Part shown: positions 9,547-50,987 of the stretch, in pieces | Numbering within the stretch: position 1 is the stretch's first letter | How the letters are laid out: the number at the start of each line of letters is the position of its first letter | The notes under the pieces: generated by a model | The model's database searches: none | Told to the model about the DNA's origin: nothing | Seen by the model: only the letters and a program-made list of their open reading frames with translations | Translations under genes and position numbers: made by a program | NCBI GenBank assembly: GCA_000165345.1 | Contig: CM000435.1 | Coordinates: 832,001 to 896,000, forward strand | DNA: 64,000 nt | Direction: 5' to 3'

Positions 9547-9789
9547 TGAAACTTAACAAATTTCACAAAAATCTAATGCTAAACTTTTAATAATTTTCGT
9601 TAATTTTGTTCAAATAGTAGAATTATTAGATTTTTTCCCCATGCAAATTATGTGCGCTTTTAACACTAAAACGAGTTGGAATCTATCATGTAAATTTATG
9701 ACTAATGCCAATTATGGGGAGAGGAGATTAATTTTCTAGAATTTTCAAGCTGGTTTTTTCTTAAGTACTATTGCAATAAACTGTTAGCC

Positions 9790-11494: not shown

Positions 11495-11576
11495 TATTGA
11501 AAGCCAGCGCCAATATTTAGAGCGCAATGCTTCTAGAAAGGCAAAGCCTTAAAAAAATCACATCAAAATTTCAATT

Positions 11577-11915
11577 ATGGATACAATCTCAAATATTAAC
11601 ACAGAAAACGATAGCTCACAACAAGCAAACATTTCTCATTCTAATGTAGAGGAGTCTACTCAATCATTAAAATTCGTCATGCAGGACGTGCAGGAGCACT
11701 TCAAAAGAGCATCGCAAACAATACTAAGTCGAATCGATGAAATGGGTAGCCGAATCGATCAACTTGAATTTATGCTCAATGACTTAATATCGGAAGTTGA
11801 ATCATCAAGTCCAATGAAGCAGAAGACAGCTCACAATCAAAACGACTTAAACCACTCTAAGGCAGAAGTTAATGATTTAATACCTATTGAAAGCACGGAA
11901 CAGGTTAATAAGTAA
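11577..11915 (+). CDS. HSBP1: Heat shock factor binding protein 1 (HSBP1) homologue
   Basis: 112 aa. LKFVMQDVQEHFKRASQTILSRIDEMGSRIDQLEFMLNDLISE matches the HSBP1 coiled-coil core (…[38 protein letters not shown]…). Confidence 0.8.
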   Translation: MDTISNINTENDSSQQANISHSNVEESTQSLKFVMQDVQEHFKRASQTILSRIDEMGSRIDQLEFMLNDLISEVESSSPMKQKTAHNQNDLNHSKAEVNDLIPIESTEQVNK

Positions 11916-12146
11916 TTATATTGTATTACTCACTTTGCAACTACCAAGTTTCCCACACCATTGTTATTTTGCTGATTATAACAGAAAGAAGTAGATATTA
12001 AGTAATTAATCTAAAGTATGCGTGAAATTTATAAGATTGGCAATTCAAAGAAAGATTTACTTATTACTTTACGATTCAATGCTTGGTTTATTGCGCATGA
12101 ATTTATTTAGTCATTCATCAGTTATTTATTAAAGATTAATGGATCC

Positions 12147-12154
12147 TAGCGCCA
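12147..12154. promoter_or_regulatory. E2F-like GC box (TAGCGCCA) upstream of the cyclin gene
   Basis: An isolated GC-rich octamer about 390 bp upstream of the ATG at 12545, in an AT-rich spacer. Confidence 0.25.
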
Positions 12155-12476
12155 TTAGACATGACTGACAAACTGTCGTAGAGTGAAATTTATTTCGGTT
12201 AATATATCTATGAAGACATATTATACGTATAGAGTTGTATTTAACTACTATATTCCAGGTTATTTGATATTACTCGTTATAAGAGATGCATTTGTATTGG
12301 TCAAGCGAAAATGCGGTAGAATTTAGAAAAAGAATAAGGGAGATATAAATGAAATTGGTTTAGAAACAGTAATCCTCTTTGGAGGTCAACTAGATTACGT
12401 AGAACTGTTCCTTTCATTTAATAATACCTATTACATTTTTTCTTGTCCTAGAGGGCGTATATGAGAATCCAGAGTT

Positions 12477-12492
12477 GGTCTCATAGGAGACC
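12477..12492. promoter_or_regulatory. Perfect 6-bp-arm palindrome GGTCTCATAGGAGACC in the cyclin 5' leader
   Basis: GGTCTC / ATAG / GAGACC, 53 bp upstream of the ATG at 12545. It could be a 5'-UTR hairpin or a dimeric factor site. Confidence 0.3.
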
Positions 12493-12544
12493 AAAAGCCT
12501 AACAACAATAAGGGCCTGAAAGTTGGATAAAAAGATTCCTTACG

Positions 12545-17398: not shown

Positions 17399-20300
17399 TT
17401 ATTCATATATAAATGCAAACGACGTAGATCCATCTTCTTTATTTATATTTTGGATCCTATAATAAAGATCTTTTACTGCATTTTTTCTACTTGATTTTGA
17501 TTCCACAAAGTTTCTGAACAATTTTCTGTTGTTTGTAACCATGTGTTCACAAACACTCTCGGAAACTTTTTTCATATCAATACTTTGAGATTTTTCGCTT
17601 AACTTATTTTCTATCTTCAAAAGCGAGATGTTCTTTCCACTAATTAATGATGACATTAGATCAATACAATTTGATAAAATCTCACTCATTTTAATTCTGA
17701 GTTTACCTGAATCAACCAAGTCTCCATCAGGAATCGCGTTTACAATTAATAAATACCCAATCTCATATGCCGAGTCTATCATCATCTTAATAAAGCTTTC
17801 TGGATTGAAAAAGAATCTGATTTGATTAATTTCTGTTTCTTGGCAAAAATCTGAAAATGAGTATTTCTTCAATTTATTTAAATTTTTTACAGATAGTTTT
17901 GTAATCAACTGATGGAAAATGTGAGGCCCTACGCTTAAAGAATAATCTTTAGCCCACATATTTACGATATTTGAAATAGTGTACCATCCAATAATTTTGT
18001 CTTTTGAAGCTGTTTTAGAATTAGCACTAATTTTTTCGAGTAATTTCGAGTGTATTTTTTTTTTATCTTTAATTGAAAAAAGGAAGTGGTTGGGTGAGAT
18101 TAGATCGATAAACGTTTGGCATATAACTTTTATTATATCTTCTTTAATTTGGTCGTTTATGTCAATTGTTACTGTTCCGTCAACATCTGTCGGATATTCC
18201 ATGACTGGGACACTATACTCAAATACCTGACTATCATCGGGATTAAGAACAATTATTTCGTTTGAATGGCTATTGGTCCAAACTTTACACATTGACTCAA
18301 GATCAGATAAGCTGGTATTTTTATTAAAATCGAGTTTTATATCCGCCATACTTTCAAGTTGAAGAAAAGACATAGCTTCTTGGAATGCACGACGAATAAC
18401 ATATGTATTGAAGAAAATCAAGTCAGAGTAGATTAATAAGTTTTTGCTTTGGAGATCTTTATGCATTTCAACTGGTGCAAGTTTTAAAAATGAATAATTC
18501 GCCATTTCTGGATCAATATAAATTAAAGTATCTATACTTCCATTCAAGGCTCTAACTTCTGTGGCTGAAGGTACTCCAAAACTAAATAGTGTTTCAATAA
18601 ACTGATCTTTAATATTATTGTGGATACTTTTTTGCATATTTATATGATTAGAATAGTCCGACAAAGGATGTTTTTCAACCAAGAACTGCATTGTATTGAA
18701 TATAAGTTCAAATTGATGGCTTACAGAATAAATATAAATCACTGTCCTTCCATATTTTTTCTCTAAATCATTACAGAATGTTATGATTTCTTCTTTAGAA
18801 TATATGAGCATTTGCGAAACCCAATTAAAGCAATATTTATAAAGTGTAGTTATTTCATCTTCATCTATTTTGATGTTATTAAGCTTTTTTAAATCAGTTG
18901 CTTTTTTGGACGAAATCTGAGAAATCAAAAGACGATTAATCATATCATATGTAATCAACTTTTTTCTTGAGTAAAGAGGCGAATGAATAGTACTAATCCA
19001 TGATCCAAGCTCAATAAGTGGAGTTTGTGACATTTCTATAATGATATATTCTGTGAATTCTTTTTCAAAATAAATGCTTAGTATTTCGGCTTGAGAATAA
19101 AATGCATTCAACAATAATGCTGGGTCCCAAAAGTAGTGGTAATTATAAAATCCAACAAAGCTATTGGACTTAATTAGTTGATTATAACTTGATGTTTTGG
19201 AAATCAATTGCCAGTCAGCTGTAACTAAACTAGCTGAAGTATTTGGCCAAATTAATTTATTTCCAGACCTTGCATCATCTTGTTTAATTCTACGTATAAA
19301 CTCCATTAAAAAGATCTTTCTTATTTCCCCAAAAATAAATGGAAGATTTGGTTCCCAAATATTTGCAACTTCACTACAGATTCGTTCTGAACGGTCCTTT
19401 TCTGTTGAATCTCCATAGAATGACGAAAGTTCCATAATCAATATTGAAAGTGGAGATATTCTAGTCAAGTATTCAGCGCACAAATTGGATAGTTTTTTGT
19501 CCATTTCAGTATCTCCTCTTTCAAAAATATGTATAGAACTATGTGAAGCAAAAATACTAGGTAATAATGATGGATCTTGAAAATATTCTACATATTTTGA
19601 TATACTTATCAGCTCCCTTTTTAGCACTTGAATTATCGTTTCAACAATATTAATTGGACTAATAAAAGTACTTTCTAAACCCAGGGTTGAGTGCAATATG
19701 AACCAATCCAATCCATTTGTAAATGTGTTTGAGATCTGGTCCCAATATATGCTTTTTGAGGAAATACCTGAATTTTCATTATCTCTAAATTGGTTTAGAA
19801 AATCAAATCCAGACAAAGAAGATTTCTTTGACATTATATTTGCAATCTTCGGGCTCAATGATTCAAAGTATTTAATACCAAACAATTCAAGTAGAACATT
19901 ATTTTTTGTCATTTCTAAAAATATTTTTTTAATTTTATTCGTATCTCTCAATTGAACATCACTCCTTGGATATCCAGATAAGTAAATTGTATTGTTAAAC
20001 GACACTAGACTAACCGAGTTTACAGAAATTACTGGTACAATTGTGGAGTCTATCATTTTTACTCTCTCCCAGCTACATGGAAATGGAGGTTCCAATTCGA
20101 AAAATATTCCAGGATAAATGTATTCTCTTGGTTCGGGGAATAGTGGAGCATGATAAATTGCTTTCAATCTTTCCTTAGTTGTCAAAAATATACCATCACT
20201 TTTAGTTTTTAAGTTAATAATTCTTTCTTCTTCCAACAACATTTCATAGAAAAACAATACGATGTGTTTGAAATCCAAGTTTCTATAATGTTCTATGAAT

Positions 20301-23300: not shown

Positions 23301-26119
23301 CTTTCCATCATCAGTGAGTACCTAAGGACATATTCTGAAATATTTGAATTCTTTATGAAAGGTAATTTATCAGCGAGAACTACGCTCAGAGGATAATTTA
23401 CTGGATGTTTCCACCAAAGACACAAAGAACTTACTGGGATTTCAACATCTTTTGTCCCAAGCTTTTTTAGATCTATGAAGTGATTTGTGAATGATTCAAT
23501 TATCGCTGCCAATACGTGGAGATAGTTGATGATATTTTGCTGAAGCCCAACACATGTTTGTTTATTTCCTGGTATAAGAATTGTATTAATATTGGCCCTG
23601 CATCCAAATGGAGTCAATGCATTAATTAATTTCTTATTAATGGGGGAGATAGTTATGTCAAATGGTAAGAAAGCAAATAGAGGTGCAGAACACACTCTTA
23701 TTGAATATATTGATTCAATTGAATCGATGGTATTCTTTGGGTTAATATACATATTTTTTTCGAGATTCATTCTAAATTGGTTGCTAAGCTCAATAAAAAA
23801 ACTTGAGGTAACTTTCTTTGCTTTATTTGAATTATCGCTTGAAAAAGGAAATAGTTCATGCAAATTTTCTTTAAATAACATATTTGAAAGATGAGTTCCA
23901 AAATCAGAAGGATTATATGGGTCTTTCTTTTCTTTTTCCAAACTCAAGAATGTTTTACATAGTAAAGTAATTGGAATAACTGATTCTACTGAGTTAGGGA
24001 ATATATGCGAGATGAAACCCTGAGAAAATGAGCCAAAACAGAGCAAATAGTTAAGCTGAGATTGAGCAATAACCCCGCATTCTTCTAAAGCCCAAACATC
24101 TCTTGCAAGATCAACAGGTGCGGACGCCAATAACTCCAATTCTGATCTGGAATTGTATCCTTCTGTTGAACGACCTTTTGGAGAAACTCCTATTACACCG
24201 CAAAAAGCCAATTCTAATTCATATAAAATTCCAATCAAAAGCCTTTTATTTGATAAAATACTTTCATTCTTGCTAACTTCCAACTCTACATCTCTACATA
24301 ATTCTTGAAGCAATTTATCTAAATCTGAATGGGTTCCTCCAACAACTAAATCAGCCTTTCCAGCAGAAGCTAAACCTTGGACATATGTTTTACAAATTTT
24401 AACTACATTCCCTCCACTGGGATCAATAACATTCCCTACCTTACTATTAATTGGGACGGTGTAATCCAAAACAATCAAGGAGTCTGAATAGCTTTCTGAT
24501 GAGATCCGAAATATTAAATATAGTAAATATTCGGAAGGAATCAGCCAATAACTTAGATCTCTATAGACAATTTCATTAATGCATTCACCAGAATTACATT
24601 CTGATATTAAATCCCAAATCTGGTCCTTTTCATTCAAGTAGGGTGCAGCACCTCTTTTTGTGATAATCTTTTTGTACAATTCAAATAGTCTGGATTTTGG
24701 GGCTTGAGATTTACTTGGTGGATTTATAGTGGTTTCTTCCATTTCATTATCATCAACTCCTAATATACTTTGTGATTGAATTGTATGTATTCTTTCTAAG
24801 TAGGCTTCCGAGTTTTTCATGATTTCAGGAAGGTATGATTCATGAGCGATCAGACACAGCTGTTCAGCAGCAGTTCTAATTATGTGGCTGCTTGTAATCA
24901 ATATTTCTCCGTCTTTGAGAAAGAACTGAGTTAAATCACCATCTAAAAACCCTTTACTTATTTGTGAGTTTCTAAACATTATGAATTTGACACACTCAGC
25001 CTTGAAGTTAAGAAGAGAAAAGTTTGGACCTGACTGATAAAGGACTGAACTATCTATCACATTAGGTAAACCCTTGACAAGATAATCTGATTCTTCATTA
25101 AATTCGCTTTGTGCTTCAACAACTGACTGCCATGCAAGAAGTAAACGAGCTTCTGGGCCTAAAACTCTTAGTTTTTCGGATATATCCTCCTGATTTATTA
25201 ATTTAATCAAATCCACACCAGCTTTTTTTGTTGACGCCAACGCTTGATTGGCCAATGTACCATAGCTGCTTTTAATATTACCTCGATCAATTTCCCGGAT
25301 GTCTTTTTTAGGTCTGGCAATAATTCTTTTTTGTTTCTTGTCTTCTAACTCAATTTTTTGTGGCTTTACAATTTTTTTCGTTGTATTACTTCGATCAATA
25401 GTAACAAGTTTTCGTTTTTCAGGTTTAGGACGAGTGGCAATTAAATATTTCTCTTTATTTCCAGAGTCAGCAGTCACTAGACTCGTCTGAGTATATTTAT
25501 CATTTAATTTTTTCCCTTCAGTCATAACTGTTTGTTTTACATGCTCTAAAGATTTTTTGGCAGCCTCATCAGTAAAAACGCTTTTAATACCCCAGCTCTT
25601 TAATCTTTCCACATAATTCTCTAATGCTGGTATTTCTAAAACTTCAGGGCCATATTGTAAAAAACAATACTGAATCTCTCTTGCAACTCTATCACCAAGG
25701 TCTTGGAATGATGCCTTAAAACCACTATTAAGTATACTAACATCGCTATCTATAACTTGTGGGGTAAATGGATCAAGCTCTATTCTGTTTAAAAGCCTTT
25801 CACAAGCTTGTATAATTTCTACAGAAACGAATAGGTCCCTACCACCAGAGTTCTGATATATTACTGGCAATTTGTTGGCTCTCTTTAAGCTATCAATCTC
25901 TCGATCTGCTAATTTCCAAGTTTCTGGATCTTTGATTGTGCGATAATTTACTGCATCTTTGGAAAAAATTAGTCTGGCTTTGTTAAAAGAAATTATATCA
26001 TTATTTTGATATTCACTACAAAATATATACCCAATAAATGTAGCAATAAATATTAGGCATAAATAAATATGCTTGAATTTGATCATTTGATCTGTGCTGT
26101 TCATATTATTATATAACAA
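17399..26119 (-). CDS. Large secreted protein, array member 1 (2906 aa); no recognisable domain
   Basis: Single uninterrupted 8.7-kb ORF. The N-terminus MLYNNMNSTDQMIKFKHIYLCLIFIATFIGYIFCSEYQ has a hydrophobic signal-peptide core. No catalytic or structural motif I can identify. Shares the post-signal motif SLKRANKLPVIYQNSGGRDLFVSVEIIQACE with its neighbours. Confidence 0.75.
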   Translation of the reverse strand: MLYNNMNSTDQMIKFKHIYLCLIFIATFIGYIFCSEYQNNDIISFNKARLIFSKDAVNYRTIKDPETWKLADREIDSLKRANKLPVIYQNSGGRDLFVSVEIIQACERLLNRIELDPFTPQVIDSDVSILNSGFKASFQDLGDRVAREIQYCFLQYGPEVLEIPALENYVERLKSWGIKSVFTDEAAKKSLEHVKQTVMTEGKKLNDKYTQTSLVTADSGNKEKYLIATRPKPEKRKLVTIDRSNTTKKIVKPQKIELEDKKQKRIIARPKKDIREIDRGNIKSSYGTLANQALASTKKAGVDLIKLINQEDISEKLRVLGPEARLLLAWQSVVEAQSEFNEESDYLVKGLPNVIDSSVLYQSGPNFSLLNFKAECVKFIMFRNSQISKGFLDGDLTQFFLKDGEILITSSHIIRTAAEQLCLIAHESYLPEIMKNSEAYLERIHTIQSQSILGVDDNEMEETTINPPSKSQAPKSRLFELYKKIITKRGAAPYLNEKDQIWDLISECNSGECINEIVYRDLSYWLIPSEYLLYLIFRISSESYSDSLIVLDYTVPINSKVGNVIDPSGGNVVKICKTYVQGLASAGKADLVVGGTHSDLDKLLQELCRDVELEVSKNESILSNKRLLIGILYELELAFCGVIGVSPKGRSTEGYNSRSELELLASAPVDLARDVWALEECGVIAQSQLNYLLCFGSFSQGFISHIFPNSVESVIPITLLCKTFLSLEKEKKDPYNPSDFGTHLSNMLFKENLHELFPFSSDNSNKAKKVTSSFFIELSNQFRMNLEKNMYINPKNTIDSIESIYSIRVCSAPLFAFLPFDITISPINKKLINALTPFGCRANINTILIPGNKQTCVGLQQNIINYLHVLAAIIESFTNHFIDLKKLGTKDVEIPVSSLCLWWKHPVNYPLSVVLADKLPFIKNSNISEYVLRYSLMMESMNFPGPVKAEKRIEYIYSNPQIFSNRARDLPKNIIYPDFNPPSNVFEALEFYLKKDAILGYRELQRELDDKPIEQSTFELISKKCPNLESWQVNFVIAFQNSVKTTMKMVLSKLNEPSQFKIEIDILCSWVINNFPKDSIPGTTVDVDEAGESLEKEAKGTIPWLQPLIGSYLLSTFNIWSQTEYILKLGGISKTKILDKNKIKLDEIKYLFEKKYTPVVTSNQDLKIIGLDSLNPITRLKLNPFVDDTLSLPNPPLESECDSIWVANLMNAFRIYFMEFQRKLIDPIFHGSFDPIIMCEIVKEIVKKKVFQSQFGDVFYRVFKDKEWIKNKQLVRVLVKNAGDWISQTFELPEYPTHDTTQYGENLIECYRLSYSMENRPISSSLRLNIDEIEKELLPKLEISSFPSLSLKSIIPFLQSLDPNTYYRNVETCKDLSESEIRMLVSLSSYLETISKSVFNSQVPEGSTKKGLLEELKFEFPLDGLCSWWLNVKKINASPNYSSNTVCWASLLSKHVINSHLERVKSDPEMNMQWKPWFTAPVAEALLFGFFNSINKNTKSGYKEINMNIVQEGFINQNQIRNMEVLESIFSTNDNYRFATPFHRSTNDLNSMPITYFNYLHLPSEHYEEIVGFLQEGFKRPIGHSDVMTGRNLHQIEINMSTFIAYSISKSSRLSKRNNWKITANNVMEAFHKYKSSDLSLRSWLEHLQLSIPNASPSIQSVFMLFTNYLKEEAKLVKANLSNKDLRDESWNQIDSFYSLPLHENMKYSRTPPFGYFPIFEMDTNLNFSNIQIPYLNKNKPAPQMKFSRFRGRYWRSKMCIRQKETFLDDIPETIPSIWPSIGTVVELEKGIDEEGAELNKKEEKAPKVNILITSELEVKSRFNCDGLFVWQVNRAVYWAGMLQRYINKGPRLLKDRKELLKKISKIWSINIKSRKLPKVINTDHGNRSFNIFDMFFFYKVLNFYYNDLNGADYNQQIFGSWEDDLEKLPFFTINIFSQLFIEHYRNLDFKHIVLFFYEMLLEEERIINLKTKSDGIFLTTKERLKAIYHAPLFPEPREYIYPGIFFELEPPFPCSWERVKMIDSTIVPVISVNSVSLVSFNNTIYLSGYPRSDVQLRDTNKIKKIFLEMTKNNVLLELFGIKYFESLSPKIANIMSKKSSLSGFDFLNQFRDNENSGISSKSIYWDQISNTFTNGLDWFILHSTLGLESTFISPINIVETIIQVLKRELISISKYVEYFQDPSLLPSIFASHSSIHIFERGDTEMDKKLSNLCAEYLTRISPLSILIMELSSFYGDSTEKDRSERICSEVANIWEPNLPFIFGEIRKIFLMEFIRRIKQDDARSGNKLIWPNTSASLVTADWQLISKTSSYNQLIKSNSFVGFYNYHYFWDPALLLNAFYSQAEILSIYFEKEFTEYIIIEMSQTPLIELGSWISTIHSPLYSRKKLITYDMINRLLISQISSKKATDLKKLNNIKIDEDEITTLYKYCFNWVSQMLIYSKEEIITFCNDLEKKYGRTVIYIYSVSHQFELIFNTMQFLVEKHPLSDYSNHINMQKSIHNNIKDQFIETLFSFGVPSATEVRALNGSIDTLIYIDPEMANYSFLKLAPVEMHKDLQSKNLLIYSDLIFFNTYVIRRAFQEAMSFLQLESMADIKLDFNKNTSLSDLESMCKVWTNSHSNEIIVLNPDDSQVFEYSVPVMEYPTDVDGTVTIDINDQIKEDIIKVICQTFIDLISPNHFLFSIKDKKKIHSKLLEKISANSKTASKDKIIGWYTISNIVNMWAKDYSLSVGPHIFHQLITKLSVKNLNKLKKYSFSDFCQETEINQIRFFFNPESFIKMMIDSAYEIGYLLIVNAIPDGDLVDSGKLRIKMSEILSNCIDLMSSLISGKNISLLKIENKLSEKSQSIDMKKVSESVCEHMVTNNRKLFRNFVESKSSRKNAVKDLYYRIQNINKEDGSTSFAFIYE

Positions 26120-26327
26120 CTTATCAAGAATATTTTCCAGTTATTCTTTACATCAATTGTCAGGTTATGTAAGATTTCTACAAAAATTCATTAATCATGC
26201 AATTTTACACAAATTAGTCAACATATATCTGCTATTAAATTCTCTTCTGCAGTTTGTTTTATATTATTGCATTACCGCTTTTATCTGCATGGGAACCACA
26301 AACACTGAAATTAGAATCTAAAAACTA

Positions 26328-26334
26328 TGGCGGG
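26328..26334. promoter_or_regulatory. E2F-like GC box TGGCGGG in the divergent promoter between array members 1 and 2
   Basis: ctaTGGCGGGtat lies 141 bp upstream of the ATG at 26475 and 209 bp upstream of the minus-strand ATG at 26119. A GCATGC element sits 12 bp downstream (26346..26351). Confidence 0.3.
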
Positions 26335-26474
26335 TATTTTTCATTGGCATGCTATAAAAAAATTGTATTGAAGGTCCGAAGAGTTTTGATCATATATCAT
26401 TAATAACAATAATCAAGACGGTTGATGATACATTATTTACTTGAAAAGATATATAATGACTATAAAGTGATAAT

Positions 26475-29400
26475 ATGGTTTATATAAAGAAAGAACGAGA
26501 GAAAAGAAGTTTGAATAGATGTTTGTTATTAATAATTTTACTAATAATTCTAGAAATATTATGCGCAAATGGGGAAGGAAGAATATCCTTTGAAGAATAT
26601 CCATCTGGGTTAGATAAAAATAAACAAGATGAACATTTAGTTAATGAATTAATTGATACAACTTCAGATCTGAAATTTAAACAGATTTTGATAGAGAAAA
26701 CTTGCGGTGAGAAAGGAACAAATTATACTAAGGATGGGCTGAAATTTATTAAAAAAAATCTGGAAGAGTTCTCGTCAAATGAATACTACAGACTTAAATC
26801 TTTGAAAAAATTACCCAAAATTTATTCTGGAAAAAATGAGAAATTAATGCTAAGATCTTTTAGGGGAGGCGAAATTCTTGGCTCGCCATTACGGCTAAGA
26901 TCAAGAGTATTAAAGGACGAATTTTCTATCCCAGTTATTGAGGATGATTTCGCCATTTTTTCAGATGAATTAGATTCTAGTATTAATATTATTTATCCCA
27001 GGGTAATGAATGAAATAAGATATACAGTACTCTTGTGCGGCGGTGGATTAGTTACTATGCTGCCTATTGTCAGATATATGAAATTGTTAAACAGTTATGG
27101 AGAATATATGTCTAATGACCGCATAATTTTGCAAGGTATTGGCATTTATGAGAGAGAAAAGGCAGAGTCTCGACGTAGGAGCGCTAATATTGAGGCAAAA
27201 TACTTGTCAACATTGCCTTATTCAGATGAAATATATACCGGCCAGAGCATTAAAAGGGGTGGGATTATAGTTGGAATATCTGATTCTATAAAAGAAGAAC
27301 AGGATTTAATGAAGTCAATTCTTAGCAAGCAGAATTTGGATGATGGATACCAGGGAGCAGTTTTAGGATTAAATATCCGTGCAAAAGAAGAATTGTTTGA
27401 AAAAAACAGAGAGAATGCTATGAGTGATGCACAAGGGCATTTCGTATACAGCTCTGTGTTTGATTTTGACTCTCCAAATGCATTGTTTACTATGTTTAAT
27501 GAAAATTTATCGCATTTTGAAAATAATAATTTGGAATTCATGGCCAGCAATAGTAGGAACAAAATACCTCACCAAATAACGAGGGCTGAGTCAATTAAAA
27601 ATACAACAATCAATAGAATAAAATCCAATTTGATGGGATTGGATAACAATTCAAATGAATACTCTTCAGAAGGATCGATTGAGACAGGAGCTATTGAGTT
27701 TGATAAGAAAAAAGGGGAAGCAGTTTTGCCTTATGACGACCCACTCAACCCAGAAAGTATTATAATTGGAAAGAGAATTAGGCCAAATGATCAAATATCA
27801 ACAGGGTCAACAGAATATCAAGCGAGATTAATTCCAGAATCAAAGCTAGCAGCTTCTGAGCTTGAACCTATTAAAGGATTTCCAACAAATGATAAAGTTG
27901 ATAAGGTTATAGTTGAAATAATTAGTGAGCTGGAAAATCAAAATTATCTCAACAATTTAACTAACTTAAAAACGTCAAAAGCGTATACTGAAGCTTATAG
28001 ACGTTTCCCTGCATATGTTTCTCAAAAGAAAATAATACCTGTTCATGATCAAGCATACATTTTTTGGGAGTCTCTAAGGTTATCGAATAGTATTATGAAT
28101 AAAAGACATGGAGTTAATGTCTCTAACTTTCCAGAAAAAGCAAATATACCCAGCGATAATATTTTGCCAAATAAAATACCGGTAACAAATAAAGAAATTA
28201 CCCGAAATTGTTATAGATTAATAAGATATTTTCAAAAAAGTGGTATTCCCTTTATCTTCAGGGCAGCATCAAAGATTCAAGGAAGTAAAAATTATAACGT
28301 AAACTTTGTTGATCCAACGAAGTCGGAGTACAATCAAGAGTATAAATTATATGCAAAAATATTATGTAATCAATTGTTACCGGAAATTTTCGTATACACA
28401 TTCCACAATGTATTTGAACTTCTCATTTCTAAACGAGAACAGAAATACTTCAATGAATTGGATGAAAAGAGATTAGAACTCGAAGTACAGCAGAAGGAGG
28501 CAGATGCCTTAAAGAAGATACGAGAGTCAGTTATCTCAAGAGCACATATTACTCCATATATTGTCGAAAAACCATTTGAAAGGTACTTTAATGCTTGGAG
28601 GAGAAGCTTTGGGTATAACGGATTTATAGTCTATCCCCGAATAAAAACCTCAGTATTAGAAAAGATGTACAATATTGCCAAGTTTGGCCCGCAAATTATA
28701 GAGAAAAAAAAGAAGAATGCTACTCCTGATGAAGTCAGAAGTTCTATTTCAAAAGCTCTTATTAGAATTATTGACGAATACTTTGCAAACTTGAATACAT
28801 TGGATTTGTTCTTGAATAGAGTTCAAGTTGAAGAGTTTATTAATGGAACATTTTCAAACTTATTTAGTATTGCAATTAGTGAGTTAATTAAAAAAATGCC
28901 AATTGCCCCCGAAATGGATATTAAAAGCCATGGAAACAGTTTTCAAATAAAAGAGTTATTTGTGAGTTGTACTGATTATATTAAAGCAATATTAAATTTT
29001 AATAAAAATATAAATAAGATTTCTGACAATTTGGGTTTGGAAGATAATCTTAGTAAAAGTGGTTATAAAAATTCAAATTTGAAAAGTACAACTGATTTTT
29101 CATTAGGAATCAAACTTCTTGAAAGTGGGTATGAATCTGCATGTATGTTTGCAAGTAATCTATTAAAACCAAATATTATTGAGTACTCTTTGGCAATGGG
29201 GTCAAATGGTGTAATTACAAAATTGGCAGAAAGAATCAAAAGTTCCTTTATTCACCAATCTTTGACTGATGGCTCCAGTAAAATCCCTCTTGAACTTGGA
29301 TTGAAAATGTTCGAAAATAGCTATATTGATGTTTATAAAAGGGTATGCGAGCAGCATGGAATATTGTATTTTATACCAGCAAATGAAAAACAGTATTTCG

Positions 29401-31622
29401 ACTCTTTCCCTATGTTTAATGAGATGTCTAAGCGTAGCCGTGTTGAATTGGCATCAGATACCATTAATTTTCTGGAAATTGAAAAGATATTTTTAACTGT
29501 ATTCGAAAGTATTGTAAAGCCCAGAGATAAAGGTAAAAAATTGGAGCTTTTTAATGAAAATATTATGGCAGAGTTTATTCTTGAAATTTTGATAGAAAAA
29601 AATGTTAATGTTCCTTCAGAAGTAAATTCCCTCCCTCCATTCCCAGTTTCTCATAAATATCCTTGGTCGCCTTTTTTCAATAGAGGACTAAACCAATGGT
29701 GTGTAAATATGATCAACTCTCTTGTTGATCAGAGGTTATTAAGCAGCGCTAATGACAATAAAGTTTTTGATAGAACTAATATCGGGCCAATAATTAAGTC
29801 AGCATGTACGGAAGACATATTTCTAAAAATCCGAAACAATATAGAGTATGAGGCAGATGAAATTTTAAGGAGAAACTTTGCTTATCATCTCGCGACTTCT
29901 TTTGTATATTGGCATTATTATATTTCTTTGCCAAAGTGGGTATTTTATGAAAATTGGGAAGGCATATATTCGTCAAATGCAGTAATTACACTTTCTGAAG
30001 AACCAGAAATTAGCCTAGTTACTTTTATTTTATTTAAATGCATTGCGGATCTAGAATATTTGGGAAATACTTTAAATGGAAGGGAAATGGCAATCATTAA
30101 AAAAGAACTTTTAGATTCGAGCAATGATTCAACAAGAAATAAGGCAAATAAAGCTAAGCTTAGCCTGTGGAGCAACACTTCAGCTAAGTCCGTTGATGGG
30201 GGAAGAGTTAGTTTGGCATACTTCCTTTTCCCTAACGTAATTAGTAGAGATATTCTTGCGAAAGTTACTCCAGAAGATGTTCTTGCTTTCACAGGACCTC
30301 ATGATATATTTTGGGTTGGAGCGGATGAAAAAGAATTTCTTCCAATGTGTTTGAATTCGATTGAAAAATTAAACGAGTATTTAAATTTTAAAAATTTAAA
30401 TTCTAAGGAAGAAATAAATATTTGGATATCTAATGATACGAATTCAAGAGAATTATTCTGCAGAGATATTGCTGGTAGGTTCTTTTATCCAAGATTGTTT
30501 ACGAACAGTGATTCTGATTTATCAAATGAAGTGAACCCTAAACAGATATTTTCAATAGAAAAGCTTAAGCTAAAAAGATCTCAATGGTTAGCGATTCAAG
30601 AAGCGATAAGAAGAAAGACTGAAAAAGAGCAGAAAGAATCAGTGGCGCATAAGGGTGAAGGAGAAAATCAACTTATCAGCATGAATATTTATTCGAGTTT
30701 TGTTCTTGACTTTCAAGAGTCAGATGAATTAACTAATCCAGGATCCTTTATGAAGAATTGCATTGCTGCATTTGATACTGCAATGATGCTTCCAGAGGGA
30801 AGCCCTTATAAGTTGAAGATTTTGAACAAACCAAATGAAACAATCAGAGACATTTGTGATGAGTCCATGAAATTGTTCTATTCATCTGCAGTTCCAATGA
30901 GTTGGGACGAACAGCAATCTCAATTCAATCCAATTCCTTTAGATGACAAATATACAGTTTCTAGAATAGCTCTAGCTCAACATGAAGTCATATTAGAGCA
31001 AATCAACGAACAAAATGAATTAGGTGACTACTCAATTCGAAGTTCTGAGAGATTCAACAATTTATTTTCTTCGTTGATAGTAAACATTGGAGTTTCTGAT
31101 TCCATCTCTAAGTTTATGGATATATGCTCTGAATATATTTGGGAATGCATTAAGAGAAAGTTACTATTTCTTGGAAATGGTTACGATATTTCAAATAGTA
31201 ATGATCTCATTGAGAATATTTGTAAAAAGTCCTCATATAGATACTTTATTTCAAAAGTCCCAATTAAAACTGAGGAAATAGTATTGCAAGTAAAGTCTGG
31301 AAAAGAAATTTCAGAATGGCAACGCATAAGGTACAAAACAGAGCAGTGGAAAATGCTGCAGAGAGTATTTGACTCATTCGCAAACAGGTTTCCTGGGGGG
31401 TATGAGGCAGTTATTTCTAAAACATTCAGGCTCCCGAAATACATGCAGTTAGCGAACTTCAATACTAGTGAAGATATTTTTACCATTGGAGAAGATTGCA
31501 AGAAGGCAATGAGTTATTTAATTAATCTTCATTCTTGCGCTTCTAACTTCGTTGTAATTTTTGGGAAAGTAACCGAATTTTGTGATAATGTAACGCAAGC
31601 ATTCAAACAAAGTAATTCATAG
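26475..31622 (+). CDS. Large secreted protein, array member 2 (1715 aa); no recognisable domain
   Basis: N-terminus MVYIKKEREKRSLNRCLLLIILLIILEILCANGEG (n-region plus hydrophobic core). Intronless. Contains NEYYRLKSLKKLPKIYSGKNEKLMLRSF, related to the motif in members 1, 3, 6 and 7. Confidence 0.75.
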   Translation: MVYIKKEREKRSLNRCLLLIILLIILEILCANGEGRISFEEYPSGLDKNKQDEHLVNELIDTTSDLKFKQILIEKTCGEKGTNYTKDGLKFIKKNLEEFSSNEYYRLKSLKKLPKIYSGKNEKLMLRSFRGGEILGSPLRLRSRVLKDEFSIPVIEDDFAIFSDELDSSINIIYPRVMNEIRYTVLLCGGGLVTMLPIVRYMKLLNSYGEYMSNDRIILQGIGIYEREKAESRRRSANIEAKYLSTLPYSDEIYTGQSIKRGGIIVGISDSIKEEQDLMKSILSKQNLDDGYQGAVLGLNIRAKEELFEKNRENAMSDAQGHFVYSSVFDFDSPNALFTMFNENLSHFENNNLEFMASNSRNKIPHQITRAESIKNTTINRIKSNLMGLDNNSNEYSSEGSIETGAIEFDKKKGEAVLPYDDPLNPESIIIGKRIRPNDQISTGSTEYQARLIPESKLAASELEPIKGFPTNDKVDKVIVEIISELENQNYLNNLTNLKTSKAYTEAYRRFPAYVSQKKIIPVHDQAYIFWESLRLSNSIMNKRHGVNVSNFPEKANIPSDNILPNKIPVTNKEITRNCYRLIRYFQKSGIPFIFRAASKIQGSKNYNVNFVDPTKSEYNQEYKLYAKILCNQLLPEIFVYTFHNVFELLISKREQKYFNELDEKRLELEVQQKEADALKKIRESVISRAHITPYIVEKPFERYFNAWRRSFGYNGFIVYPRIKTSVLEKMYNIAKFGPQIIEKKKKNATPDEVRSSISKALIRIIDEYFANLNTLDLFLNRVQVEEFINGTFSNLFSIAISELIKKMPIAPEMDIKSHGNSFQIKELFVSCTDYIKAILNFNKNINKISDNLGLEDNLSKSGYKNSNLKSTTDFSLGIKLLESGYESACMFASNLLKPNIIEYSLAMGSNGVITKLAERIKSSFIHQSLTDGSSKIPLELGLKMFENSYIDVYKRVCEQHGILYFIPANEKQYFDSFPMFNEMSKRSRVELASDTINFLEIEKIFLTVFESIVKPRDKGKKLELFNENIMAEFILEILIEKNVNVPSEVNSLPPFPVSHKYPWSPFFNRGLNQWCVNMINSLVDQRLLSSANDNKVFDRTNIGPIIKSACTEDIFLKIRNNIEYEADEILRRNFAYHLATSFVYWHYYISLPKWVFYENWEGIYSSNAVITLSEEPEISLVTFILFKCIADLEYLGNTLNGREMAIIKKELLDSSNDSTRNKANKAKLSLWSNTSAKSVDGGRVSLAYFLFPNVISRDILAKVTPEDVLAFTGPHDIFWVGADEKEFLPMCLNSIEKLNEYLNFKNLNSKEEINIWISNDTNSRELFCRDIAGRFFYPRLFTNSDSDLSNEVNPKQIFSIEKLKLKRSQWLAIQEAIRRKTEKEQKESVAHKGEGENQLISMNIYSSFVLDFQESDELTNPGSFMKNCIAAFDTAMMLPEGSPYKLKILNKPNETIRDICDESMKLFYSSAVPMSWDEQQSQFNPIPLDDKYTVSRIALAQHEVILEQINEQNELGDYSIRSSERFNNLFSSLIVNIGVSDSISKFMDICSEYIWECIKRKLLFLGNGYDISNSNDLIENICKKSSYRYFISKVPIKTEEIVLQVKSGKEISEWQRIRYKTEQWKMLQRVFDSFANRFPGGYEAVISKTFRLPKYMQLANFNTSEDIFTIGEDCKKAMSYLINLHSCASNFVVIFGKVTEFCDNVTQAFKQSNS

Positions 31623-31847
31623 AGATTTATGTTATAGTGACTGTTGTTCCTTATAAATAACGAAACTTAACACTTCTTATAGATTAATTTGATTAATAAG
31701 TTTATATTTTATCGAAATAAATTCAATATTTCTTTGAATTTTTTAATAGCCGCTTAATAAATATTATTAGATCATAATTAAATTCATGTGAAGTTTATAT
31801 GACGACTGCAGAGGTAGCAATAAAAAAGTCAAAAATTTAATCAAAAA

Positions 31848-34800
31848 ATGAAACTAGATGAATTATTTCACATATCATTACTTATTCTTTATTTTTTAAT
31901 TTTCCTGGGAAATGTGAAATCTAGTCCAACTGTTACAAAGAAAGATGATATAGATAAAGAAGTCGCACCTGGACTACCTTTATTGAATAATGATGAAGTT
32001 TATAGCTGGAATACACTTAGGGATTATGTTGAATATTATGAAAGTAACATTGAAATCATTCGAGAAAAATACCCTTCTCTGGAGGATCATTTAATAAAAA
32101 GTCAATGGTTTTCTATAATAGATGTTTTGCGGTGTGAATATGAAATAGAACAGGACAAAACATTGTTTCCTCCTAGAATAAAGATTAAAAGCCTTCCAAA
32201 GATTATAAATGATGTAAAGTCTTTGTGGAAGGAAAAAAACTTTCTTTCAGTTTCCTTGGAAAAGTCGGAATTTATACAAAGATGTACTACAGCAGTTAGA
32301 AATTTAATTTTTCATAAAAGCATTCAAGTAGAAACTTATGATAAAAGCTTATTAAAAAGTATATGCAACGACTCTTCAATAATGTTTTTTAATCCTGCAA
32401 TGCTTTATGAAGAGTTGAAAACAAAAACAGATTATGACAAACAAAGAATTCCTATTTCAAGATTAACATGCATAGATAAACATAGGATTCGAATTGGGCA
32501 ATGGTCTGCAATTGTGCATTTACATGCTCTTGATTCAGAAGATGGAAGAGATCGAATTTTTAGTCAAAATGATTCAATGGAACAAGATTTCCTTCCATAT
32601 TCACCGCCTGATTCATTTCATACAGAAATTGAAGCTGAAAATTTTGAATTAGTATGTAAGGAAGCACTATCAGACTACTATTCTAGAGTTGAAGATAAGA
32701 ACGTCATTTTGGAAATTTTTTGCAAAGATGCTAAGGATATTTATTACAATAATCCACTTGAAATACATGGAAAATACGCCATTTATGGTACTTCAATTGA
32801 AAAGCTCAAGTTAAATGAGATTAAAAAGAAGGCAGGCAGAATCAACCCACCATCTTTAATGGCACTTAATCTAATGGAATACCGCTCTTTAAGAATTAGT
32901 GAGTGGGTAGTGATCGTTGATCAGCTTGAAATAGACAAGAAATCTAAACCTCGTTATGACCGTATAGTTGGAAATATTTCAATAGATCCAAGACCATATG
33001 GGTTTATTGCATCTTTAAATTCTAGAGAATTTGAAGAAGCATGTATAAATGCACTAATGAGTAGAGTTAAGCAACAGGAGGAGATAATGAAATTGATACA
33101 TAATTTTGAAATGAATCCAGAAAAAATGGAATTAGACGAAGTAATTGAATGGGAGCGTCAGTACTCCATCGAAGTCATTGAACCAGACACTTTTTGTAAG
33201 GATGCAGCGGGAGTTTATTTCGGTATTAGCCGTGATTCATTTACTGTAATGAGAGAGCTACCGTTAACCAATCCTCCACAATTTATTGACCCGGGGAGAG
33301 GATTGTTAAAAAGCGATTTACCTACAAAGGTTTTGGACTTAAATAATGAGAGATCAGCTCGTGGATCTGAGAGAATAAATGATATTGATTGGAGGGTTGA
33401 GGCATCTTGCTTTCTTTGGGAGAGTTTAATAAAATCAAGAGTTCATTCTAGAATTGAAGATGCAATAACAAATATTCAGTGGCAAGCAATAAAGCAGCAA
33501 GCAAATGGATTTGTCTTTCTAGATATTGGAATTGATGGATTTTATAACGGGATAGAGGACCCACCAAAAAGTATTTTTTCATTTTCAGATGATCCATTTG
33601 GAATGTACAGCCAATGCTTGCATGCATTTTCGGAATCAAATAGGAGGAAGACCAATATTAATTACTTTGATAAACTACCGAAATTTGACTATAAGTGGAC
33701 AATTTCTAAAAATATATCAGAGAAGTTACTTAATCGGGGAATAAATTCCGAAAACTTTGAAAGTTTCAAGGAGTATTCAAACCCAGTCAAACAGTCTTTA
33801 TGTATGGAGGCAGTAAAAGAATACTTTGAGAGTGCAAGTGACTGCCCAATTGTTAATGACGAAATAGAGTTAATAAAATTCAGTGTAAAGAATGCGTTTC
33901 CAAATAACCCCTTTCCAGACGCGAAAGATCCAATGATCGCAGATCCAGACGGAGAACTTGAGGCTAAAGAGCAGTGGAACTTCATTTATGAATATTCTTT
34001 ACAGTCTCGTAACCAAAAGCTGACGAATGACGATTTCAATGAAAATATTATAATTGTGAGTCAAAAAATGCCTCTTTCTTATTTAGAATTTAGAAATTTA
34101 GACTGGCGTACTAAACATGAATGCTATCAAGATATGGCGATTAACTGTATTCAGTCTTCATGGAAAATGGTGGAATCTAATTGGAAGAACCAAAATGTTC
34201 AAACAGACCTTGCATCTGCATTAGCCATATTTTGTGATAGTGTAGCCATTCTTTATTTTGAGAGAAAAAAACAATGGAGGCAATTGGTTAAACTTATGGA
34301 AACACCAAAATATTCTTCTGCTTTTTATTGGATAAGAAGGGGATTTTATTTACCCAGGTCTTACAATCTATTAAAAATATCAATCAATAATGGTAAAGAG
34401 CGTAAGATAAGCGAAGAAGAGTTGGCGATTTATAAACAGTCCCTGGCAAATAGCATCCTTGAGTTGGTAAAATATAGATATTTGGCTCCACTTACTGTTG
34501 ATATTGGAGAGTTATGTCATTCTCTTGCAGTTGATATGTCTGTTGCAACAACAAGAGGAATTTGGATAGGACTTGTACCAGTTGACTCTGAGGTAATTAT
34601 TGAAATGGAAAGGCTATCAAATAACAATATTAATTTAGAAAAAAAAGATGAAGCAGTTGGCTACTATCCAATAAAAAATCAATTCTCCCCTAGAAGAAGA
34701 GTTATTAAAAGTGAATCGGATTCTACGAGTCATAGATTTAAGAGGAATAAGAAAGAACAAATTGTTTCAATGTCGAGCTTAAAGTCACCAATTAAGACTA

Positions 34801-36113: not shown

Positions 36114-36430
36114 GTTAATTTTAGATTTTGCGCAGAGTTTTATATTATTAGATTAAATTAATTATTGTATTTTATTATCAAAACAATTAAAAATATATTA
36201 ATATTTTTGAAAAATATCCTAATTAAAATGGCTTAAATAAATCTATATTAAATTGTTTTAGCTACCATGATTTGTTCGACAAAGAAAAAAATTCGAATAA
36301 TGTCTTTAAAATGGCCAAAAATATTAACAATTAATTTATGCAGTTGGAACAATGCAGTGTAACGGCTGTATGATCAATAATGTAATAAATAATAAATCTG
36401 TTATCTTGGCAATAAAACATGCATAAGTGA

Positions 36431-36437
36431 TGGCGCC
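36431..36437. promoter_or_regulatory. E2F-like GC box TGGCGCC upstream of array member 4
   Basis: gtgaTGGCGCCtgat lies 127 bp upstream of the ATG at 36564. Confidence 0.3.
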
Positions 36438-36563
36438 TGATATTATAAAAGTAGAATTTTACAATTAATGTAAATGCAAGCTAATTGAAGGGTGTAAAAA
36501 CCTCTATAAATAGTTTAACTAGTCAGCAATTTATTAATTTTTATGTATTTATAAAAGTTAAAA

Positions 36564-38375
36564 ATGGAACTAGTTTTTTTGCTCACAACCCTTTTTATAT
36601 TCGTTCTTAAATTTGTTGCCATAGCAGCAAACCAGGACAAAAATTTAACAAAAAGTGTTGCTTCCAGCTTACCCCTGGTTGAAGTATCTAGAATTTCAAA
36701 AATTGCAACAAAATATGTTTCTGGTGCAAATATACCTGAAGTAGTTAATAAGCCTGGCTGGGGAGCTAAGATTTCTGTAATTAATAATTATAAGTCGGCA
36801 ATGTTCAGAAGAGAAATATGGTCACAAGTGATACAAACTTTAAATGAACCTGTTATTGGGTATAATGTTACAATTTCAAATCATTACATAAAAAACCCAC
36901 CTCCTGTCCAGGCTTTTATGAAGTCTGAACTACCAATAGAAATGAATAGTCAGTGCTTAAATGCATTCAATTATTTTTATGTCCATCCAAATTTAATAAC
37001 CTGCACCCCATCACCTTCCAAAGAGTTGTTAGAGATTCTTTTCAGGTATATTTGTATGAAGTCTGTAAAAAAAATCTTTTTATCTTGGACAGGTTTTATT
37101 TTCGTCCTTAGGGAAATAATTGAAAAAGCAATATTTTCAATTAAAAATAATAAAGTTCCTAAATCTGTTTTCAACAGTTTGATGAGCGAGTATTATCATA
37201 ATCCATATAAAGACTTTGTTCCAATTGGAAAAAGATTAGGGAAACACATAAAAATGGATATAGAAGGACAGAATATCTGGCAGTTCATAGTTTCCAGGAG
37301 TAAGCTCTTATATAATATTGATTCACCAACAAGGGCTGCTCGCCGTGGAGAATGGGCATTTGTAGTTATATCCGGTAATCATACTCCAGCAGAGTTTTTG
37401 TATATGAGAGAAATACGTTTTATGAATGTCGACTCTGTGCAATTAATCACTGCCATACTATTTACCATGATTATGTTCAAGGTAAAGAACCCTTCAAAAT
37501 TCAAGTCATTTGAAGTAGTTATTGAAGATCATAACAAAAAAATGAAGAAAAGTGTAAATTCCAACTTGCTGTTGGCATTTTCTGCTAGAATTGCAACATA
37601 TTATTCTTATATTATAAACGACTGGAATGATCAAATTGATAACTTAATGGAAATTGATTTGGAAGAAAAAGAAAAAAGGAGAAATCAAACATTTATTTGG
37701 CACTCAAAGCCTCTACTTTCTTTAGCTTTTGAGCCAGATATTACGGTACCTAATGAACTAGTTTCTAACTGCGTAAGGTATTGCGAAGACTTGGTTTCAA
37801 GAGGTATTGTTTCTGTTGTTGGCGTTGATAATGGGGCAGAATCTTCTTCATTTCTGCAAAAAAAACTAGAAAATATTTGTAAAAAATTACAAAACAAAAT
37901 CCTACCATACACCGAAATTTATGTTGAACCTGAGAAAAATGTACCTAAGTCTATATTAAAAAGTTCGGTCAAGCCTAGTAGTCTAAAAAAGAAAAAGTTG
38001 AGATTTGATAATAACGTGCAAGTTTCAATATACAATAAAGGCGAGCATATTAGCGAAAGGACTCCTATTGGTAACTTCACACTTGGTTCATCATTAAAAA
38101 CTTCTTTAATGAAGCCAGAAGGAAGTTCAACCGCAAGACCTGAAATCCCAATTGATAACATTGGATCTCAAACCTCTCAACGCGTTGAAAATACTAATGC
38201 AGCCTTTGACAATATTGATCTTCAACACCTTCAAAAAGAAGATCTATTTGAAAAAACGCCATATCCATTTGAAGATGATGAATCTTCCATTAATCAAAGC
38301 AATTCTGAAAATGTTAAGCCTGTAAACTCATTAAATATGGTTAATAATGAAAATAAGTCATCAAAGAAATCCTGA
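36564..38375 (+). CDS. Secreted protein, array member 4 (603 aa) with an S/N/K-rich low-complexity C-terminus
   Basis: Signal peptide MELVFLLTTLFIFVLKFVAIAANQ. No known domain. Confidence 0.7.
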   Translation: MELVFLLTTLFIFVLKFVAIAANQDKNLTKSVASSLPLVEVSRISKIATKYVSGANIPEVVNKPGWGAKISVINNYKSAMFRREIWSQVIQTLNEPVIGYNVTISNHYIKNPPPVQAFMKSELPIEMNSQCLNAFNYFYVHPNLITCTPSPSKELLEILFRYICMKSVKKIFLSWTGFIFVLREIIEKAIFSIKNNKVPKSVFNSLMSEYYHNPYKDFVPIGKRLGKHIKMDIEGQNIWQFIVSRSKLLYNIDSPTRAARRGEWAFVVISGNHTPAEFLYMREIRFMNVDSVQLITAILFTMIMFKVKNPSKFKSFEVVIEDHNKKMKKSVNSNLLLAFSARIATYYSYIINDWNDQIDNLMEIDLEEKEKRRNQTFIWHSKPLLSLAFEPDITVPNELVSNCVRYCEDLVSRGIVSVVGVDNGAESSSFLQKKLENICKKLQNKILPYTEIYVEPEKNVPKSILKSSVKPSSLKKKKLRFDNNVQVSIYNKGEHISERTPIGNFTLGSSLKTSLMKPEGSSTARPEIPIDNIGSQTSQRVENTNAAFDNIDLQHLQKEDLFEKTPYPFEDDESSINQSNSENVKPVNSLNMVNNENKSSKKS

Positions 38376-38517
38376 TGCGATTAATTATGTCATTCAAAGT
38401 TGAATGCCAAAATTTAATTTAGGTTGAGCATTTTTAATTTGTAGGAAAATTTTAGAGATTTTCTATTTATTTATAATATTTGAATTGTGAATCGCTTTTC
38501 GAATTAGCATTTAAATA

Positions 38518-50987: not shown

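Follow-up and report, generated by a model that had tools for sequence, protein, structure and literature searches.

Cryptosporidium ranks among the leading causes of diarrhoea in children. It occupies an epicellular niche, and the secreted proteins that build this niche are specific to the genus and mostly uncharacterised. Among the clustered families of this kind, the subtelomeric SKSR and MEDLE families consist of small, polymorphic proteins whose copy number varies between species. Here we analysed a cluster of seven genes for proteins of 603-2901 amino acids (aa), located at positions 17399 to 50987 of a 64,000-nucleotide stretch of Cryptosporidium parvum Iowa II chromosome 7 (GenBank assembly GCA_000165345.1, contig CM000435.1, positions 832,001 to 896,000), which we call the window and in whose numbering coordinates are given. 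The translations of the seven open reading frames (ORFs) exactly match deposited proteins of C. parvum Iowa II and of several other isolates, with the gene ids cgd7_3800, cgd7_3810, cgd7_3820, cgd7_3830, cgd7_3840, cgd7_3860 and cgd7_3870. The same seven ids are listed, respectively, as LSP1 to LSP7 in Table 1 of Mullapudi 2007 (PMC1779779), where, after Abrahamsen 2004, they make up the CpLSP (large secretory protein) family, a set of adjacent, co-expressed large secretory proteins clustered on chromosome 7 with a shared upstream motif. The locus is thus the published, named CpLSP cluster, with nothing different in identity, and finding it here is a rediscovery. A first-pass annotation made from the sequence alone had proposed it as the best candidate in the window for an uncharacterised secreted system, a description that does not suit a named cluster of seven adjacent co-expressed genes. 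To the published description we add that six of the genes are homologous and LSP5 is unrelated to them, that a two-cysteine module recurs in the family, that another gene, cgd7_3850, is embedded in the cluster, and that synteny is genus-wide; the architecture of the module and the removal of LSP5 from the family extend the published account incrementally. The CpLSP cluster is a genus-restricted, syntenically fixed block of co-regulated genes.

The cluster shares single traits with several other described groups. Like the micronemal adhesins TRAP-C1, TSP3 and TSP11, which belong to the class of genes peaking 12 h after infection, the LSPs have putative signal peptides and the timing of immature meronts; unlike them, they have no TSP1, EGF, Apple/PAN, MAR or other adhesive Pfam domain (E <= 0.1) and no conserved transmembrane segment with a cytoplasmic tail, and they are predicted to be largely helical. 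The dense- and small-granule interface proteins DG8, SG4 and CP2 (PMC13241007, PMC12782386) bear signal peptides, which in the LSPs are putative, and are likewise genus-specific and without known domains, but the LSPs exceed them greatly in size and form a cluster of homologues, and their enrichment in pull-downs was low-count and below the authors' cut-offs. SKSR and MEDLE resemble the LSPs in being Cryptosporidium-specific and clustered and in their signal peptides, which in the LSPs are putative, whereas the copy number and order of the LSP genes are fixed from intestinal to gastric species and the genes are under purifying selection. Finally, the LSPs differ from the COWP family in a cysteine content of only 0.8-2.3%, in the absence of a COWP domain by Pfam, and in an expression peak at 12 h rather than at 48-72 h.

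We compared the LSPs with each other by all-against-all blastp, which gave significant matches only for LSP1-LSP2 (E = 2e-6) and LSP6-LSP7 (E = 4e-10), and by HHalign of profiles built from the orthologue alignments. As a null we used column-reversed profiles (n = 42), which keep composition and helicity and lose homology; their scores had a mean of 22.3, a standard deviation of 3.8 and a maximum of 32.7. LSP6-LSP7 scored 111 (probability 97.6%, E = 4e-12), with a homologous stretch of ~300 aa between LSP6 aa 725-1061 and LSP7 aa 241-570. LSP1-LSP2 scored 97 (probability 96.4%, E = 1.2e-9); here the link is an N-terminal domain of ~130 aa, LSP1 aa 63-193 (25526..25918, minus strand), homologous to LSP2 aa 97-230, which joins LSP1 to the other genes and is distinct from the module described below. 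Scores of 51.7 (LSP2-LSP3), 49.2 (LSP3-LSP6), 46.3 (LSP3-LSP4) and 44.5 (LSP2-LSP6), at probabilities of 26-56%, were obtained for four further pairs. Because these six real pairs (44.5-111) all score above the null, LSP1, LSP2, LSP3, LSP4, LSP6 and LSP7 form one connected homology network. The best score of LSP5 (38518..40770, minus strand, 750 aa) against any other LSP was 24.8, inside the null, as were the scores of the cgd7_3850 and Sec63 controls. On sequence comparison, then, the six connected genes appear to descend from common ancestors by tandem gene duplication together with internal module duplication, and LSP5 and cgd7_3850 appear to be unrelated genes within the same co-expressed domain; cgd7_3850 may be a functional partner or a passenger. 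A 'Symplekin' label (Symplekin C-terminal) attached in UniRef to the C. canis orthologue of LSP5 was also considered and rejected, since no Symplekin family came up when nine LSP5 orthologues were scanned against Pfam at E <= 10; LSP5 orthologues with complete gene models have the hydrophobic N terminus.

Five of the LSPs contain a module of ~105 aa with two cysteines that is predicted to be helical. Self-comparison of the LSP3 profile with HHalign revealed a tandem repeat of ~125 aa (probability 85%, aa 136-301 versus 260-459), and the module signature reads R-x-R-x-G-Q-W-[FS]-A, then C-x-x-A-[LI], then F-C-x-D-A-A-x-x-Y-F. Six occurrences of the FCxDAAxxYF-like terminal motif were found in LSP2, LSP3 and LSP6, compared with 0.012 expected from shuffling. 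A hidden Markov model (HMM) of the module, started from a three-copy seed and run for four iterations over all orthologues, controls and reversed decoys with inclusion at an independent E value (i-E) of 1e-3, converged on ~105 positions and 84 instances across the orthologues. Thirteen of the copies are in C. parvum. LSP2 (26475..31622, plus strand, 1715 aa) has four in tandem at 30147..31619 (aa 1225-1342, 1359-1475, 1491-1597 and 1613-1715, thus spanning aa 1225-1715; i-E 1e-18 to 4e-21), and four copies were found in 8/8 species. LSP3 (31848..36113, plus strand, 1421 aa) also has four in tandem, at 32070..33845 (aa 75-187, 207-306, 341-464 and 534-666, spanning aa 75-666; i-E 3e-19 to 1e-23), with a marginal fifth at aa 705-810. 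There is one copy in LSP4 (36564..38375, plus strand, 603 aa) at aa 74-177 (nt 36783-37094; i-E 2.5e-26), and there are two in LSP6 (41954..45733, minus strand, 1259 aa) at aa 62-165 (nt 45239-45550) and aa 956-1066 (nt 42536-42868), with i-E of 2e-27 and 4e-19. The two copies in LSP7 (45990..50987, plus strand, 1665 aa), at aa 312-429 and 465-576 (nt 46923-47717), are divergent and score more weakly (i-E 3e-4 and 2e-5).

No copy was accepted by the HMM in LSP1 or LSP5. A degenerate candidate in LSP1 at around aa 535-635, with i-E of 0.004-0.14 in three species, was suggestive and was not accepted. None of the non-LSP controls scored below i-E 0.05, the best reversed decoys reached 0.04-0.24, and in the rest of the window, translated in six frames, nothing scored below 0.33. 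Over the 84 instances the two cysteine columns are 90% and 100% conserved and the tryptophan ~80%, and the copy number per protein is identical in all species, gastric ones included. In LSP3, LSP4 and LSP6 the first module starts 60-75 residues in, directly after the signal region, a position that fits descent by tandem gene duplication. Isolated modules gave only sub-threshold noise against Pfam, and profile searches of Protein Data Bank sequences with LSP6, LSP5 and the module gave nothing below E = 0.02. The first-pass annotation had seen no nameable domain or repeat in these proteins. As to domains this was borne out, since none of the seven LSPs matched a Pfam-A family at threshold (only sub-threshold noise at E <= 0.1); as to repeats it was not, as the module shows.

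We located the cluster in other species through orthologues of LSP6, LSP2 and LSP5. In C. ubiquitum, C. canis, C. felis and C. ryanae, and likewise in the gastric C. andersoni and C. serpentis, each gene has a 1:1 orthologue and neither order nor orientation changes, so that the synteny extends across the genus. In intestinal species the block lies between MyoA and Sec63, where the locus was fetched on those sides, and cgd7_3850 was found in every locus that reaches its position. Gastric species have an extra gene of 464-475 aa between LSP3 and LSP4 (C. andersoni L003:20064-21458; C. serpentis L001:21144-22571), which is without a signal peptide or Pfam match and has no counterpart in the window. 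The public annotation of C. ubiquitum (L007:14054-17271) fuses the cgd7_3850 orthologue and LSP5 into one model of 938 aa; separate ORFs of 237 and 763 aa are present, as in other species, and the fusion is probably a mis-annotation. Word-seeded searches with LSP6, LSP2 and LSP5 found no homologue outside Cryptosporidium, and an exhaustive hmmsearch of 1.84 billion representatives with the LSP6 profile returned only LSP6 itself and one fragment. The suggestion that these genes are lineage-specific was thus upheld in both kinds of search.

The LSP lengths are very stable across species (LSP1 is 2893-2906 aa throughout). Against the gastric clade, sequence identity amounts to 32-47% in the LSPs and 73% in Sec63, and LSP2 orthologues go down to 38% (C. 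andersoni). Between C. parvum and C. ubiquitum, at a synonymous divergence (dS) of ~0.8-1.0, the LSPs have a ratio of nonsynonymous to synonymous substitution rates (dN/dS) of 0.09-0.19; Sec63 has 0.03 and cgd7_3885 has 0.06. The LSPs are therefore under purifying selection, as had been proposed for the full-length products, and evolve as proteins 3-6 times faster than their housekeeping neighbours. Conservation is spread over the full length rather than confined to islands between disordered spacers. LSP5 is the exception: its first 240 aa vary, and its last 500 aa are highly conserved.

Expression of the cluster was assessed from the real-time PCR data of Mauzy et al. 2012 (PMC3305300, supplementary file 2), which cover seven time points with four replicates and are summarised here as medians. 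LSP3, LSP6 and LSP7 were at zero at 2 h and 6 h and on by 12 h, and at 12 h LSP4 was up 72-fold and LSP5 12-fold. By median, 6/7 LSPs peak at 12 h, LSP3 being marginally higher at 36 h (29.4% versus 27.6% of summed expression); by replicate mean, 12 h is highest for 7/7. The highest 12 h value in the cluster was that of LSP7, at ~1e-3 relative to 18S rRNA. The embedded gene cgd7_3850 was essentially zero early (zero at 6 h) and rose >500-fold at 12 h, and the adjacent MyoA rose 3400-fold. As for the outer neighbours, the cyclin-domain gene cgd7_3780 was constitutive and Sec63 peaked at 6 h. The nine genes from cgd7_3790 to cgd7_3870 thus make up a co-expressed domain of ~36 kb that is mostly induced at 12 h. 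Overall, the LSPs are transcribed little or not at all in sporozoites and trophozoites and come on at 12 h. The original study assigns 12 h to immature meronts, and its 12 h class includes TSP3, TSP11, TRAP-C1, components of the inner membrane complex (IMC) and myosins (PMC3305300). The nine-gene domain is an exception to the conclusion of that study that expression ignores chromosomal position. Supplementary file 4 of the same study names cgd7_3830 (LSP4) 'unconventional myosin', which looks like a row shift from cgd7_3790.

We also aligned the five LSP intergenic regions across species. The alignments show short invariant blocks amid otherwise unalignable AT-rich DNA. A GGCGG/GGCGCC box is present in 4/5 LSP promoters, and the LSP3 promoter has AGCCGC as a variant of it. 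TTAGAT[TC] occurs in 4/5, and CATGCA/TGCATG in 3/5. The divergent LSP1/LSP2 promoter (26105..26474) has a GC-box at 26329-26334, TTAGATT on the minus strand at 26315-26322 and CATGCA at 26196 and 26286, and its CCCGCC-N-TTTTTAGATT is conserved in 5/5 species, C. andersoni included. In the LSP3 promoter (31623..31847, plus strand), AGCCGC lies at 31748 and TTAGATC at 31767. The LSP4 promoter (36114..36563, plus strand) has ACATGCA-N-TGGCGCCTGATAT at 36418-36440 and TTAGATT at 36121 and 36148, and its ACATGCA and TGGCGC-TGATA blocks are invariant in five species. The LSP5 promoter (40771..41021, minus strand) has only a GC-box, TTCCCGCCATG on the gene strand, at 40864. The divergent LSP6/LSP7 promoter (45734..45989) contains TGCATGC at 45879, GGCGG at 45925 and TTTAGATT at 45938 and 45964, of which GGCGG and both TTTAGATT copies are conserved in 5/5 species, C. 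serpentis included. A composite arrangement, in which a GC-box (GGCGG or AGCCGC) is followed 6-19 bp on by TTAGAT[TC], was seen in the LSP1/2 (26315-26334), LSP3 (31748-31773) and LSP6/7 (45925-45945) promoters and is conserved across species.

Relative to the remaining intergenic DNA of the window (9.1 kb), the LSP promoters (1.55 kb) contain each of the three elements 6-8 times more often (Poisson P ~1e-3 each), though it counts against these P values that the motifs were picked after inspecting the data, which makes them optimistic, and cross-species conservation is the stronger argument. Over the whole window, TTTAGATT is not enriched (11 found versus 13.4 expected), and its enrichment is confined to the LSP promoters. 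Co-regulation would probably act through the conserved GGCGG/GGCGCC box, TTAGAT and CATGCA elements. A conserved upstream motif in two to three copies within ~350 bp of each LSP start has been reported (PMC1779779); this motif may or may not be one of the elements described here.

A secretory character of the LSPs is suggested by their N termini and their cysteines. Within the first 45 residues, all LSPs and all their orthologues have a hydrophobic core, and the position of this core is kept despite turnover of its sequence, which is not conserved. Most of the h-regions are 11-17 residues long, the length of a signal peptide, with plausible small residues at -1/-3. The embedded cgd7_3850 has no hydrophobic N-terminal core. 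In the LSP alignments we found no internal hydrophobic segment common to all orthologues, no C-terminal hydrophobic tail and no C terminus resembling an endoplasmic reticulum (ER) retention signal. Of the cysteines downstream of the signal region, 67-91% are invariant in the genus, compared with 22-34% of all residues, that is, 2-4 times more often, whereas the corresponding ratio in Sec63 is only 1.2. This pattern of cysteine conservation is as expected of structural disulfides in proteins folded in the ER.

Taken together, we consider it on balance probable that the LSPs are cargo that nascent zoites load into their secretory organelles and discharge at or after invasion. The N termini and the cysteine conservation suggest that the LSPs would enter the ER and carry structural disulfides. 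They would be made during daughter-zoite assembly and stored in organelles of the zoite, and after their discharge they would act at the interface between parasite and host. We propose organelle loading and release at invasion because the LSPs share their timing with MyoA and the microneme genes, and because LSP1 and LSP2 protein has been found at 3 h post-infection, each with five unique peptides in pull-downs from lysates of 3 h-infected cells (PMC13241007, S1 Table). The earlier guess of zoite secretory cargo fits the published switch-on at 12 h. The LSPs are probably large helical scaffolds or binding proteins and not enzymes, in view of their size, their helicity and the absence of a catalytic signature.

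Several observations weigh against this reading. Co-expression is imperfect, with LSP1 peaking at 6-12 h and LSP2 broad with a maximum at 12 h, and the 12 h class also contains cytoskeletal and IMC proteins, so that timing alone is no proof of organelle cargo. The mass spectrometry evidence for LSP1 and LSP2 is low-count (7-8 peptide-spectrum matches), stands among ribosomal contaminants and is absent from the authors' hit list (PMC13241007). At the N terminus, LSP1 and LSP5 have uncharged stretches of 19 and 23 aa, respectively, a length sufficient for signal anchors, and annotators of C. meleagridis call several LSPs 'integral membrane protein'. AlphaFold2 models, made from 9-sequence alignments each, are poor, with mean pLDDT of 48.3 for LSP6 aa 60-1259 and 47.6 for LSP5; the only moderately confident parts are an all-helical core of LSP6 at ~aa 320-760 and an alpha+beta N-domain of LSP5 at aa 36-175, and no fold match was obtained for the LSP models. 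The cluster has been named since 2004, and in the literature searched the localisation or function of its members is not reported.

An alternative that we regard as unlikely, while fitting part of the expression data, is that the growing meront secretes the LSPs directly and continuously from ~12 h into the parasitophorous vacuole or feeder-organelle region, where they would have a structural or nutrient-interface role and would not be stored in zoites. The putative signal peptides and conserved cysteines fit this equally well, and LSP2, LSP3, LSP6 and LSP7 stay on from 12 h up to 72 h, unlike MyoA, the expression of which collapses beyond 12 h. This persistence must be read in light of the asynchrony of the culture after 24 h, and PMC3305300 takes the 12 h and 36 h peaks as repeated merogony. 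Moreover, LSP4, LSP5 and cgd7_3850 show sharp 12 h spikes like that of MyoA, and the LSP1 and LSP2 protein seen at 3 h post-infection precedes the 12 h transcript peak.

It is rather improbable, in our view, that the LSPs are never released and instead are type II membrane-anchored or lumenal structural proteins of zoite endomembranes (such as ER/Golgi, IMC lumen or organelle matrix) or of the pellicle. The 19-23 uncharged N-terminal residues of LSP1 and LSP5 and the integral-membrane label used by some annotators point this way, as do a 12 h class dominated by genes for structure, cytoskeleton and IMC (PMC3305300), the predicted large, all-helical, scaffold-like regions, and a moderate, purifying mode of evolution (dN/dS 0.1-0.2) with no sign of positive selection. 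Residence in endomembranes is harder to square with h-regions that mostly have signal-peptide length, with the lack of a conserved internal transmembrane segment or an ER-retention-like C terminus, and with a rate of evolution 3-6 times that of the housekeeping neighbours.

That the LSPs are sexual-stage or oocyst-wall components like the COWPs is largely excluded: they are large, cysteine-containing, putatively secreted proteins, and Mullapudi 2007 (PMC1779779) treats COWP and LSP side by side as parasite-specific co-expressed families, but most LSP expression peaks at 12 h and declines by 48-72 h, when sexual stages appear (PMC3305300), and Pfam finds no COWP-type cysteine-rich repeat domain. 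That the array brings unrelated orphan genes together by chance, as the non-significant blastp comparisons among most members and the lack of a detectable relation of LSP5 and cgd7_3850 to the rest might suggest, is already refuted for 6/7 LSPs, whose links exceed a matched null and which have a specific module in common, and is very improbable for the array as a whole, whose order and orientation are fixed across the genus and whose expression is common. Cargo of zoite secretory organelles thus remains the reading that we prefer.

The gene models hold with small corrections. All seven ORFs lie where the first-pass annotation had placed them, on the same strands, in two divergent pairs and a tandem run. 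LSP1 (EAK90374.1 / Q5CY38) has its first ATG at 26104, the upstream codon at 26119 being TTG, and therefore occupies 17399..26104 on the minus strand with 2901 aa; the first ATG of LSP5, at 40770, gives 750 aa. Annotated length equals ORF length for all seven genes, which are thus intronless as annotated, in keeping with the first reading. At 32% GC, ~7.6% of random codons are stops (0.076 per codon), so that ORFs of this length are impossible by chance (P = 1.6e-21 for 603 codons and 1e-100 for 2901 codons). The secretory-type N termini, too, were recognised correctly, with a hydrophobic core in all seven proteins and in every orthologue examined. What did not survive is the picture of one contiguous family of seven. 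LSP5 has no detectable relation to the rest, and cgd7_3850 (41022..41735, minus strand, 237 aa), which is without a signal peptide or Pfam match, sits between LSP5 and LSP6; since it lacks a hydrophobic N terminus, the array is not a contiguous run of secreted proteins.

The organism and the flanking genes had been named correctly. MyoA (cgd7_3790, 14632..17082, minus strand; Myosin_head E = 5.9e-184) lies outside the LSP family, and Sec63/DnaJ (cgd7_3880, 51858..53741, minus strand; DnaJ and Sec63 in Pfam) lies outside the co-expressed domain. Database labels for the cluster are uneven: some current annotations of LSP genes carry the tag 'Secreted Protein (CpLSP family)', and the label 'CpLSP gene family' is found on cgd7_3800, cgd7_3870 and the chromosome 1 genes cgd1_650 and cgd1_140-160, and not on cgd7_3810 or other original members. 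Beyond Sec63, cgd7_3885 (54093-55466, plus strand) encodes a protein of 457 aa with a signal-peptide-like N terminus, no Pfam match and 76-90% identity between those intestinal species that were compared; for its orthologue, one source gives the label 'patatin-like phospholipase family', which Pfam did not reproduce. An Rfam scan of the whole window matched nothing. At 9547-12544, a 3 kb region contains only short plus-strand ORFs (83-123 aa), again with no Rfam match, and could be an intron-containing gene or several small genes.

A further reading, which we offer as a speculation that is probably wrong in at least one of its parts, is that the two-cysteine module is an undescribed extracellular domain found only in Cryptosporidium and that the products of the nine-gene domain include subunits of one large secreted assembly. 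Equally conjectural is the suggestion that the parasite would form such an assembly in merogony and put it to use at invasion, for instance as a structural layer of the unique epicellular host-parasite interface. If the single-assembly reading were true, constraints on a complex of many subunits would account for the constant copy number, for a gene order that is the same in gastric and intestinal species, and for the purifying selection. The cluster is now more tractable, as there is a testable two-cysteine domain with coordinates for every copy and the true relatives are defined, with LSP5 and cgd7_3850 being passengers or partners of another kind. The locus, though no surprise to a Cryptosporidium specialist, is a sensible experimental target: it is ancient and fixed in the genus, and its expression is tied to merozoite biogenesis.

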